Virus record (IMG/VR): IMGVR_UViG_3300034965_000024
Location: 1 to 40,200 of that record
Origin: a virus
Taxonomy: Duplodnaviria > Caudoviricetes
DNA: 40,200 bases
Strand: one strand, 5' to 3'
In this document: piece after piece, positions 10,089 through 17,911 of the stretch
Position numbering within the stretch: position 1 is the stretch's first letter
Layout of the letters: each line of letters opens with the position of its first letter
Position numbers and translations under genes: made by a program
Notes under the pieces: model-generated
The model's input: the letters and a program-made list of their open reading frames with translations, nothing else
Told to the model about the DNA's origin: nothing
The model's database searches: none

Positions 10089-10171
10089 ATTAGCTCCTTC
10101 GTTAAAAAAGCCCCACCACAAACAACGGGGCTATGTTACTGCACGACGTAAGCCTGGATGGCTACAACTCA

Positions 10172-10235
10172 ATATTAAATTAGCAACTTGGTTGCGTCAA
10201 GTAATTTGACAAATATATTTATGATCGGCTAGAAT
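10172..10235. promoter_or_regulatory. Back-to-back sigma70-like early promoters (PL/PR) with operator-like palindromes
   Basis: Minus strand: TTGACG(10200-10195)-17-TAATAT(10177-10172). Plus strand: TTGACA(10206)-18-TAGAAT(10230). Palindromes GTCAA-N5-TTGAC and GCAAC-N3-GTTGC. Confidence 0.75.
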
Positions 10236-10260
10236 CAACCCTACCAAATAGGAGTAACCA

Positions 10261-10455
10261 ATGAAAAGAGAGAAGGTAATTAAATATTTTGCTAAATGGT
10301 ACCCAAGTTTAGCCCCGGAGGTAGCGACTGCCAAAGCACTTGGGATAAGCAGGCAGGCTGTTAATGCGTGGGATGATGATGTACCAAAAACTAGCCAAGC
10401 TCTTATAGAGCTTTTGTCCAAAGGCGATATTAAGCGGGATAAGGCAAATGGATAG
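10261..10455 (+). CDS. cro: Cro-like HTH regulator
   Basis: VIKYF...TAKALGISRQAVNAW..VP; first rightward gene. Confidence 0.88.
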   Translation: MKREKVIKYFAKWYPSLAPEVATAKALGISRQAVNAWDDDVPKTSQALIELLSKGDIKRDKANG

Positions 10456-16190: not shown

Positions 16191-16514
16191 ATGAGCATTG
16201 ATAATTTAACCATCGGTGAAGCAAAGGAATTGGCTGCGATGTTTGGCAGTTGCGATAAACGCGTCCATCCATTTACCGGGCAGAACGTGATTGTTGCATT
16301 GCCGCATGGCTTTGTGTTTTTCGGCATCTTGCAAGGTGACATGACTCTGACCAAGGCGAGCAATATCCGGCAGTGGGCCACACGCAGCGGAGGCCTTCCA
16401 GAGTTCGCAAAATCTGGCCCTATCGCTGGCGACAAAATAGACGCACTGCCCGGCAAGGTCGATGTATCTAAGTATTTATTTATCTACCAAGCCGGTGAGT
16501 GGAATGAGCGGTAA
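16191..16514 (+). CDS. DUF6948-like protein
   Basis: IDNLTIGEAKELAAMF...VIV...GFVFFG.L...LTKASNIRQW...GL.EFA..GP; adjacent to a Gly-rich gene. Confidence 0.7.
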   Translation: MSIDNLTIGEAKELAAMFGSCDKRVHPFTGQNVIVALPHGFVFFGILQGDMTLTKASNIRQWATRSGGLPEFAKSGPIAGDKIDALPGKVDVSKYLFIYQAGEWNER

Positions 16515-16680
16515 GGGCTACGGCTCCGGCTACGGCTACGGCGACGGCTCCGGCTACGGCTCCGGCTCCGGCTCCGGCTACGGCTCCGGCTACGGCTACG
16601 GCGACGGCTCCGGCTACGGCTCCGGCGACGGCTCCGGCTACGGCGACGGCTCCGGCTACGGCGACGGCTCGATTGATTAA
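16504..16680 (+). CDS. 58-aa Gly-X repeat protein (GYGSGYGYGDG...)
   Basis: Tandem GGC-(TAC/TCC/GAC) hexamers; ATG overlaps the end of the upstream gene. Confidence 0.8.
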   Translation: MSGKGYGSGYGYGDGSGYGSGSGSGYGSGYGYGDGSGYGSGDGSGYGDGSGYGDGSID

Positions 16681-16727: not shown

Positions 16728-16895
16728 ATGGAAAACAAAGTTTTGGAAGATATCAAAAATTATGCAATCAATAAGCTAAAGCAGAATTTCGGCTATTGTG
16801 GTGCGGCAGAGGGCGCTAATTCAGTATTTATAAATTCCGGTTCTGATGGCAGAAATATTACCATTAAGATAGACATTGAAGAAGTTGCCGGCTAG
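16728..16895 (+). CDS. 55-aa hypothetical protein (MENKVLEDIK...), not in ORF track
   Basis: Hand translation; GAGG RBS. Confidence 0.65.
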   Translation: MENKVLEDIKNYAINKLKQNFGYCGAAEGANSVFINSGSDGRNITIKIDIEEVAG

Positions 16896-16920: not shown

Positions 16921-17141
16921 TGCCCCTTGCGTCAGCTGCATTCTGGCGTTGCATGCAGGCAAAAGCTAGGAACCACTGTCGTGGGCTTCATAAGCAATAG
17001 GGGGCAGTCGAATGCGGTGATGGCGTAGTTAGTGCGCCGTGTTGCTTGACGTACACCGACCCTGAGGCCAAGACCCCAGCAGCAAGGGGAATAGTCAAGC
17101 ATGGCCAAGATTGGCAGCCGAGTCGTAATCGGCCACCGCAG
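16921..17141 (+). ncRNA. Candidate structured ncRNA: multibranch domain plus tRNA-like cloverleaf
   Basis: ORF-free gap with many nested stems; TGCGGTG/CACCGCA acceptor-like stem and 5-bp/7-nt T-like arm. Confidence 0.6.
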
Positions 17142-17163
17142 ACCTAATTAACTTGGAGTAAGC

Positions 17164-17340
17164 ATGATCACAAATGTCGCCGCCCTAAAGTTCAGAACCG
17201 ACACAAACGCCTCGGTCAATCTGAATTACATCACGCCAGAAATGGCCTATTCGCAGCTGGCCCAAGCATCGAGCATCGAGCAGCTAGAGGCCGCTATCGC
17301 GATATTTAACCGTGAATTGGAGAGGCAGAATGGACAATGA
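17164..17340 (+). CDS. 58-aa hypothetical protein (MITNVAALKF...), not in ORF track
   Basis: Hand translation; GGAG RBS. Confidence 0.65.
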   Translation: MITNVAALKFRTDTNASVNLNYITPEMAYSQLAQASSIEQLEAAIAIFNRELERQNGQ

Positions 17341-17539
17341 TTTTATTCCGTTCCAGTTAAAAGCAGCTTCAATCGCCGATCTCGCCTTACACTTCGATGG
17401 TGACATACCCAAACCGGGCGATAAGGTCGAGCTATTCTGTTATGAGCGCGGCGAGTTTTTCGTTAACCTGAAATGGCGCGTAGTGCAGGAGGAAAAATCG
17501 AATGAAAATAAGAGAGTTGGAGAGATTGAAAGTCGATGA
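17330..17539 (+). CDS. Hypothetical protein
   Basis: GGAGAGG RBS; coupled to the next gene. Confidence 0.55.
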   Translation: MDNDFIPFQLKAASIADLALHFDGDIPKPGDKVELFCYERGEFFVNLKWRVVQEEKSNENKRVGEIESR

Positions 17540-17748: not shown

Positions 17749-17911
17749 GCAAACAAATGATATTTTCCAGCTAACCGCTGCTGGTCTTTTTGCCTTTGAC
17801 GGCGAAATCCCAATTGAAGAACTTTACCAAGCCTTCAAGAAGCGAATGATCACGGAAATCTATATCACTATGGAGCGTGGCAAGCTTGTAATTGAGGATG
17901 TTGACGCATGA
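17741..17911 (+). CDS. 56-aa hypothetical protein (MSEQTNDIF...), not in ORF track
   Basis: Hand translation; overlaps both neighbours. Confidence 0.6.
   Translation: MSEQTNDIFQLTAAGLFAFDGEIPIEELYQAFKKRMITEIYITMERGKLVIEDVDA

Follow-up and report, generated by a model that had tools for sequence, protein, structure and literature searches.

Our analysis places the tRNA-shaped element at positions 17013-17141, as a divergent member, in a widespread and for the most part uncatalogued family of phage RNA units built on one frame, of which the prophage sRNAs STnc100 and PasD form one known branch. The frame combines a 5' hairpin with a closing stem of 7 bp on which an arm of 5 bp is stacked. The preliminary description of this DNA, made from its letters alone, had taken the element for a tRNA mimic rather than a decoding tRNA; this is supported by the conservation and covariation of the frame across phages, which the interior does not share. 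We give a probability of roughly one half to the reading in which 17013-17141 is a processing and stabilising chassis, with tRNA-trimming enzymes excising from it a stable non-decoding RNA.

Genomic position and predicted fold

The analysed stretch (hereafter the window) is an entire 40.2-kb virus record with direct terminal repeats. It encodes leftward recombination genes, cro, replication genes, NinB, an HNH endonuclease and NinG, together with the structural genes for terminase, portal, capsid and DNA ejection; no integrase was found among the 58 window ORFs scanned. On the + strand, the element occupies the intergenic gap between a 55-aa ORF that ends at 16895 and a 58-aa ORF that starts at 17164, and would thus be transcribed with the rightward early operon. 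Between 16000 and 18000, no promoter-like or terminator-like site flanks it, the nearest + strand terminator-like site lying at 17767, and 9 of the 12 ORFs near it had no Pfam match above the cut-off. The 3' flank up to the start codon is closely similar at locus L313, with identical spacing. The long hairpin upstream of the element (Table 1) could be an RNase III site; long hairpins also lie upstream of the unit in the closest relative (G001, below) and, by eye, of those at loci L168 and L187.

Elsewhere in the window, in the region 10089-10455, about 170 bp separate cro from the first leftward ORF, leaving no room for a cI gene; the corresponding place in G001 is taken by a repressor-like ORF. 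A Gly-Ser-Gly-Tyr-Gly-Asp repeat tract (16500-16680) lies in a 72-aa ORF just upstream of the neighbour gene.

Table 1. Predicted features of the element and its flanks (window coordinates)
Feature	Position	Strand	Remarks
Long upstream hairpin	16921..17006	+	From the fold; ends 6 nt before the unit
Whole tRNA-shaped unit	17013..17141	+	About 129 nt, predicted excised RNA; from fold, descriptor and family model
Closing stem, 5' strand (acceptor-like)	17013..17019	+	7 bp, conserved in the family; pairs with 17134-17140
Linker	17020-17021	+	2 nt, between closing stem and D-like hairpin
D-like 5' hairpin, GGCG-N9-CGCC	17022..17038	+	4 bp; may extend to 8 bp (17020-17040)
Interior private to this copy	17043..17101	+	8-bp stem 17043-17050/17094-17101, 43-nt loop 17051-17093
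CCCC-N8-GGGG hairpin	17074-17089	+	Inside the 43-nt loop; weak
Interior 4-bp hairpin (first described as the variable arm)	17104..17115	+	Pair probability about 0.98; not conserved in the family
T-like arm	17117..17133	+	5 bp, 7-nt loop; stacked on the closing stem, giving 12 bp
Closing stem, 3' strand, and discriminator-like G17141	17134..17141	+	ACC next; CCA not encoded
Shine-Dalgarno-like GGAG (17155-17158) and start of 58-aa ORF	17155..17166	+	Start 22 nt past the unit

All stems that had been proposed were recovered at the same positions, and their 28 pairs (five named stems) are all Watson-Crick. The 129-nt stretch, whose folding the preliminary description had suggested comparing with shuffles, folds at -55.3 kcal/mol (z -4.27), and none of 200 shuffles was as stable. 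With flanks included, pairs in the closing, D-like, 8-bp, 4-bp and T-like stems had probabilities of 0.72-1.0. The outer pairs of the D-like stem reach 0.84-0.93 over 17020-17040, and this predicted stem is probably 8 bp long rather than the 4 bp first described. The CCCC-N8-GGGG hairpin is present as a sequence, but it folds weakly (pair probability 0.31) and is missing from the centroid structure. A cloverleaf descriptor with a middle loop of free length matched the window at this site only; the same descriptor, which is laxer than the real element, gave one match in 14 of 351 shuffled windows.

Comparison with tRNA, tmRNA and catalogued families

At default thresholds, neither ARAGORN nor Rfam called anything at 17013-17141, and an Rfam search at E-values up to 10 placed no family over it. 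As in a decoding tRNA (RF00005), a 7-bp acceptor is stacked on a 5-bp T stem, and the T-like loop has 7 nt with UCG at positions 55-57. The element differs from a decoding tRNA in having an 8-bp stem with a 43-nt loop instead of a 5-bp stem with a 7-nt loop, and in lacking U8, U54, A58, the D-loop GG and CCA; the absence of U8, TTC and CCA, already remarked upon, is thus borne out. It differs from tmRNA (RF00023) in having C3-G70 instead of G3-U70 and no CCA, and no tmRNA was called. A real phage tRNA(CAU) gene (locus L392) has an acceptor stem identical to that of the element, and its T stem is the commonest T stem of the frame family.

Identification of family members

A blastn search with 17013-17141 against phages and plasmids returned no match or short chance matches. 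The exact 17-mer of the T arm occurred at 3 viral loci that all lacked the structure around it, and the D-arm pattern at at least 120 loci in about one third of the collection, with one descriptor match that we judged to be due to chance. A model built from the single sequence found 0 of 19 related records and also missed the G001 unit, and searches with the neighbouring proteins yielded no usable loci.

The closest relative found, G001 (capsid 90% identical), was located through the capsid protein alone, independently of the RNA element. Between cro and a replication gene, it carries a 147-nt unit that folds at z -4.1. The closing stem and flanks of this unit are those of 17013-17141, and its 5' hairpin and 5-bp arm, the latter stacked on the stem, surround an unrelated interior. 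The two copies have 20 stem-and-flank bases in common, with an estimated chance, at this spacing, of less than 1 in 100,000 in 40 kb. Used as a blastn query, the G001 unit matched phages twice, by short chance hits, and had no match in E. coli genomes; among five near-complete capsid relatives, the family model (E 0.01) found a unit in G001 only.

Scans with the stem-and-flank pattern yielded 1 and 29 loci in viruses, 53 in metagenomes and 39 in genomes. The genome scan added Pantoea copies, and the metagenome scan gave no convincing new member past G001's own contig. Among the 111 distinct matches, which include the window copy, 23 had the stacked arm and 19 had both arms, compared with 3.1% and 0.7% in controls with shuffled interiors. 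Inspected by eye, these 19 comprised 12 STnc100-type units, 5 others (the window copy, G001, L168, L187 and L191) and 2 that look like chance. Rfam, run on 20 of the 29 viral loci, confirmed STnc100 in 7.

A scan with the 3'-arm pattern gave at least 120 loci (about 180 estimated). Among the matches listed, the exact 5' partner lay upstream in 21 of 120 and downstream in 3 of 120, the 21 including duplicates, one likely chance match and the tRNA(CAU) gene at L392. Rfam at E 0.5 on 18 loci with 3'-arm units placed no family over the units except tRNA(CAU) at L392. A BLAST search with one member matched 243 cultured-phage records; both frame ends were matched in 28 of 60 rows sampled at even steps, the weakest rows being chance matches. 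The family model found no unit in phi80 (24000-46150), where the annotation of M3 RNA is that of a homologue of oop. A weak model match at 2297-2411 of the window falls in a short ORF, as read by eye.

Conservation of the frame and membership of the window copy

Across 73 model hits, 60 of them distinct, pairing of the closing stem is 100%, and 3 of its 7 pairs show two-sided changes, each in 6-7 sequences. In the 5' hairpin helix, pairing is 85.9% and two-sided changes affect 5 of 5 pairs; these counts lean favourable, as the alignment was fitted to the model and the sequences are related. The covariation score of the closing stem was 0.246 compared with 0.097 for shuffled alignments, and 0 of 500 shuffles reached it. 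Covariation, whose absence would have spoken against the element in the preliminary description, is thus present in both helices. For the T helix, the model-fitted alignment gives 60% pairing because the STnc100-type arms lie out of register. The outer pairs of the acceptor/T half are invariant in 57-60 of the 60 distinct rows, and G-U pairs favour the + strand as the RNA. The 7-mer at 17013-17019 also occurs in G001 and, partly by selection, in 31 of 50 framed units (defined below), across which the stack of 7 and 5 bp recurs.

The family model R2, built from 22 other members with the window copy left out, scored 17013-17141 at 34 bits (E 1e-6 by a rough calibration; next window match 11.9 bits), a score that is inflated, like the conservation of the stem sequence, because members were collected with patterns from 17013-17141. 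The R2 alignment put the T arm of the window copy on the wrong hairpin. Independently of the model, its T stem is one two-sided change away from the commonest family stem and identical to that of L321. Pairing between the loops of the 5' hairpin and the T-like arm amounts to 4-5 bp in many members and 3 bp in 17013-17141, where an L-shaped elbow would be conjectural; in non-STnc100 units, a member's own loops paired better on average than permuted ones (mean 2.82 vs 2.30, p 0.007, for 17 unique pairs with kinship not controlled).

Interiors of the units

After discarding 18 rows without a clean frame, we retained 50 distinct framed units spanning 54-230 nt. BLAST clustering grouped 49 interiors into 38 clusters, that of the window copy being a singleton; units of 54-61 nt have no interior at all, and NCCA is encoded by 4 of the 50. 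L168 and L187 have common flanks and different interiors, and P1 and mEp460 carry one and the same interior. When the window-copy interior was compared with those of 10 members, the result for L302 was reached in 3 of 200 shuffles. Relative to shuffles, the interiors folded at a median z of -0.2 (3 of 25 at or below -2; window copy -1.0; crude boundaries); since they are no better than shuffles and interior-less units exist, the interior may be a neutral passenger.

No anticodon is conserved in the family interiors, which cannot be aligned in the region that had been labelled an expanded anticodon arm and a long variable arm and which are missing in the smallest units, so that both labels were over-read. 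The earlier suggestions of a processing signal and of a scaffold fit the genomic contexts of the family, but the guide loop that the scaffold was to display found targets in its own genome no better than shuffled 43-nt loops did.

Genomic context of the family

None of the eight cultured-phage records fetched annotates the unit as an RNA. In 4 of the 8 (P1, ZC03, Gerry and phiEt88), a unit lies about 10-90 nt from a tRNA gene, and P1 has three units within 1 kb, adjoining tRNA genes. The HK620 unit is located between pR' and the holin gene, an interior-less unit of epsilon34 between pL and an N-like gene, and the units of G001, L168, L187 and L191 upstream of replication-region genes, as read from the sequence. 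At L171, units with different interiors stand back to back with no ORFs between them; Rfam gave four hits there, and by eye we counted five units with compensatory closing stems. Members often lie about 20-40 nt upstream of a start codon.

Other structured sequences were seen near some units. The L190 locus contains an array of odd tRNA-like units (1030-1110, 1172-1248, 1385-1489 and 1860-2023), in which a tRNA shell whose anticodon region is enlarged and whose T loop is canonical is followed by a unit with a weak tmRNA-model score and a CCA end, then by a family unit and by true tRNA-Thr and tRNA-Met genes. L190 (1345-1375 and 1833-1858) and L191 (1268-1300 and 1913-1937) have two more unannotated motifs in common, which flank the family unit upstream and downstream. 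At L296 (1312-1415, - strand) and L405 (112-215, - strand), an RprA-like sequence with a terminator (48-50 bits, below the gathering score) lies about 85 nt downstream of an interior-less frame, which may help release the downstream sRNA.

Proposed mechanism and alternative explanations

In the reading that we favour, 17013-17141 would be transcribed from the cro-side early operon. RNase P measures the 12-bp acceptor-plus-T stack of its substrates, and from this geometry the host enzyme is predicted to cut directly before U17013, the first base of the 12-bp acceptor-plus-T-like stack. Trimming by 3' nucleases would follow, ending after the discriminator-like base near G17141, and this maturation would create another 5' end on the downstream mRNA, about 22 nt ahead of the start codon. 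The freed RNA could then act in trans, most likely by pairing to host RNA through its unpaired interior, here 17051-17073, by analogy with Hfq-bound PasD. Excision by tRNA-processing enzymes is favoured by the conserved 12-bp stack together with the tRNA-gene-like spacing of the units; we counted against it that only 4 of 50 units, and not this copy, encode CCA, and that the 3' end of the unit has no terminator-like site, unlike Pas sRNAs. For a chassis speak the interiors that move between frames (L168/L187, P1/mEp460), the units beside tRNA genes and the multiples in P1 and at L171. More tentatively, proteobacterial tailed phages at large might share an RNase P-matured, tRNA-shaped chassis in which unrelated RNA payloads are recombined and arrayed as a large, fast-evolving and unannotated regulatory or anti-defence arsenal, an extension that we hold to be possible rather than likely; STnc100 and PasD would then be one branch and 17013-17141 a distant one.

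The frame might instead be a cis-acting leader, serving as a cut site or 5' shield that controls translation or stability of the downstream gene, with the interior as neutral filler. Such a role would agree with the start codons with a Shine-Dalgarno-like motif found at most 45 nt downstream of 10 of 28 units, compared with 17 of 190 control windows, with the interior-less epsilon34 unit and with interiors that are not unusually stable. We nevertheless consider it rather unlikely, given that 18 of the 28 units have no such start nearby and that the tandem L171 units without intervening ORFs and the units inside tRNA arrays fit a trans-acting product.

Less probable still is an anti-defence decoy, an RNA that would titrate host proteins binding the acceptor/T half of tRNAs, such as tRNA-targeting toxins or nucleases. 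The conserved part is exactly this half, with its near-invariant outer pairs, the units occur in multi-copy arrays, and 17013-17141 lies among early accessory genes; against this, the stem invariance stems partly from how members were collected, most units lack CCA and no partner protein was identified. The narrower proposal of a decoy for anticodon nucleases received no direct support: these enzymes read the anticodon region, which is missing in 17013-17141, and the part that they cut is the non-conserved one.

A decaying tRNA pseudogene with a chance insertion would account for the acceptor stem shared with the true tRNA(CAU) gene at L392 and for an identical 8-mer at 17066-17073 (in the 43-nt loop) and 17103-17110 (at the 4-bp hairpin), a possible trace of local duplication; it is improbable in view of the 28 intact stem pairs, the two-sided T-stem change that preserves pairing and the retention of the frame across unrelated phages. 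An intron-bearing decoding tRNA (Sec or opal suppressor) can practically be set aside: relaxed ARAGORN, run as had been suggested, did place its top call of 231 at 17013-17141 (tRNA-SeC(TCA) with a 51-nt intron to be removed), but we treated this call as noise since its score of 93.7 is below the default threshold and level with the next call (93.4), and it breaks stable stems, shows no bulge-helix-bulge by eye, would need an intron too short for group I, reads a TGA that is a stop in this phage (ATGA overlap at 17536-17539) and has no counterpart in family interiors, which keep no anticodon.

Relation to known systems

T4 species 1 RNA (rnaC) is similarly an annotated small stable RNA in a tRNA cluster, and its predicted fold has a 3' T-like arm behind extra helices. 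It differs in its canonical T loop and in a best family-model score of 3.4 bits in the region, and is an analogue rather than a family member. The 5-bp T stem of rnaC (L421:1109-1247, - strand), which carries a canonical 7-nt T loop, is the same as that of STnc100-type units.

The C4 antisense RNA of P1 and P7 (RF01695) acts by base-pairing. It resembles the proposed chassis in being a phage RNA with an RNase P-cleaved precursor, and reference titles point to such cleavage of phage RNAs, the P1 C4 precursor among them (PMC12710915). There was no RF01695 match in G000 or G001 (threshold 45 bits) and no complementary target in cis for 17013-17141. An antisense switch between the 43-nt loop and the upstream CCCCTTGC was rejected at a pairing probability of 0.0.

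Among the titles and abstract openings listed by literature searches outside subscription journals, none describes this frame family. Four family motifs were absent from six supplementary files of PMC10690425, three other files of which may hold the family, and the main text of the P1 transcriptome paper, in its available passages, does not mention the tRNA region (PMC8201110).

The closest known RNAs are the lambdoid prophage sRNAs STnc100 (RF02076), PasD1 and PasD2. Many copies have a closing stem and flanks as in 17013-17141, with a short linker leading to a 5' hairpin and an arm of 5 bp that stacks on the stem, and a joint family model scores both STnc100-type units and 17013-17141. The window copy differs in its arm sequences, its early-operon location and the lack of a 3' intrinsic terminator, and has no RF02076 hit even at E 5-10 (threshold 47 bits). 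According to the passages available, PasD is expressed, stabilised by Hfq and pairs with mRNAs (PMC8550237), and is related to STnc100 (10.64898/2026.05.13.724894). In the passages available from the literature, both are prophage sRNAs of unsettled function, and no tRNA-like frame is mentioned (10.64898/2026.05.13.724894, PMC8550237, PMC12370729, PMC2864571, PMC10690425, PMC5737381, PMC12710915, PMC8201110); the terms "RNase P" and "cloverleaf" do not occur in the available text of the Pas preprint (10.64898/2026.05.13.724894).

If our reading is true, many phages, among them the laboratory phages P1 and HK620, harbour tRNA-shaped RNA genes that lack annotation and escaped default tRNA finders and Rfam in this analysis, and the delivery of variable RNAs by phages would be a natural form of the tRNA-scaffold trick. 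As P1 has its three units close together beside tRNA genes, the role of tRNA-like stable phage RNAs could then be tested directly in laboratory strains of E. coli. STnc100 and PasD, for their part, would acquire a fold like that of tRNA and a route of processing, both absent from the cited passages.
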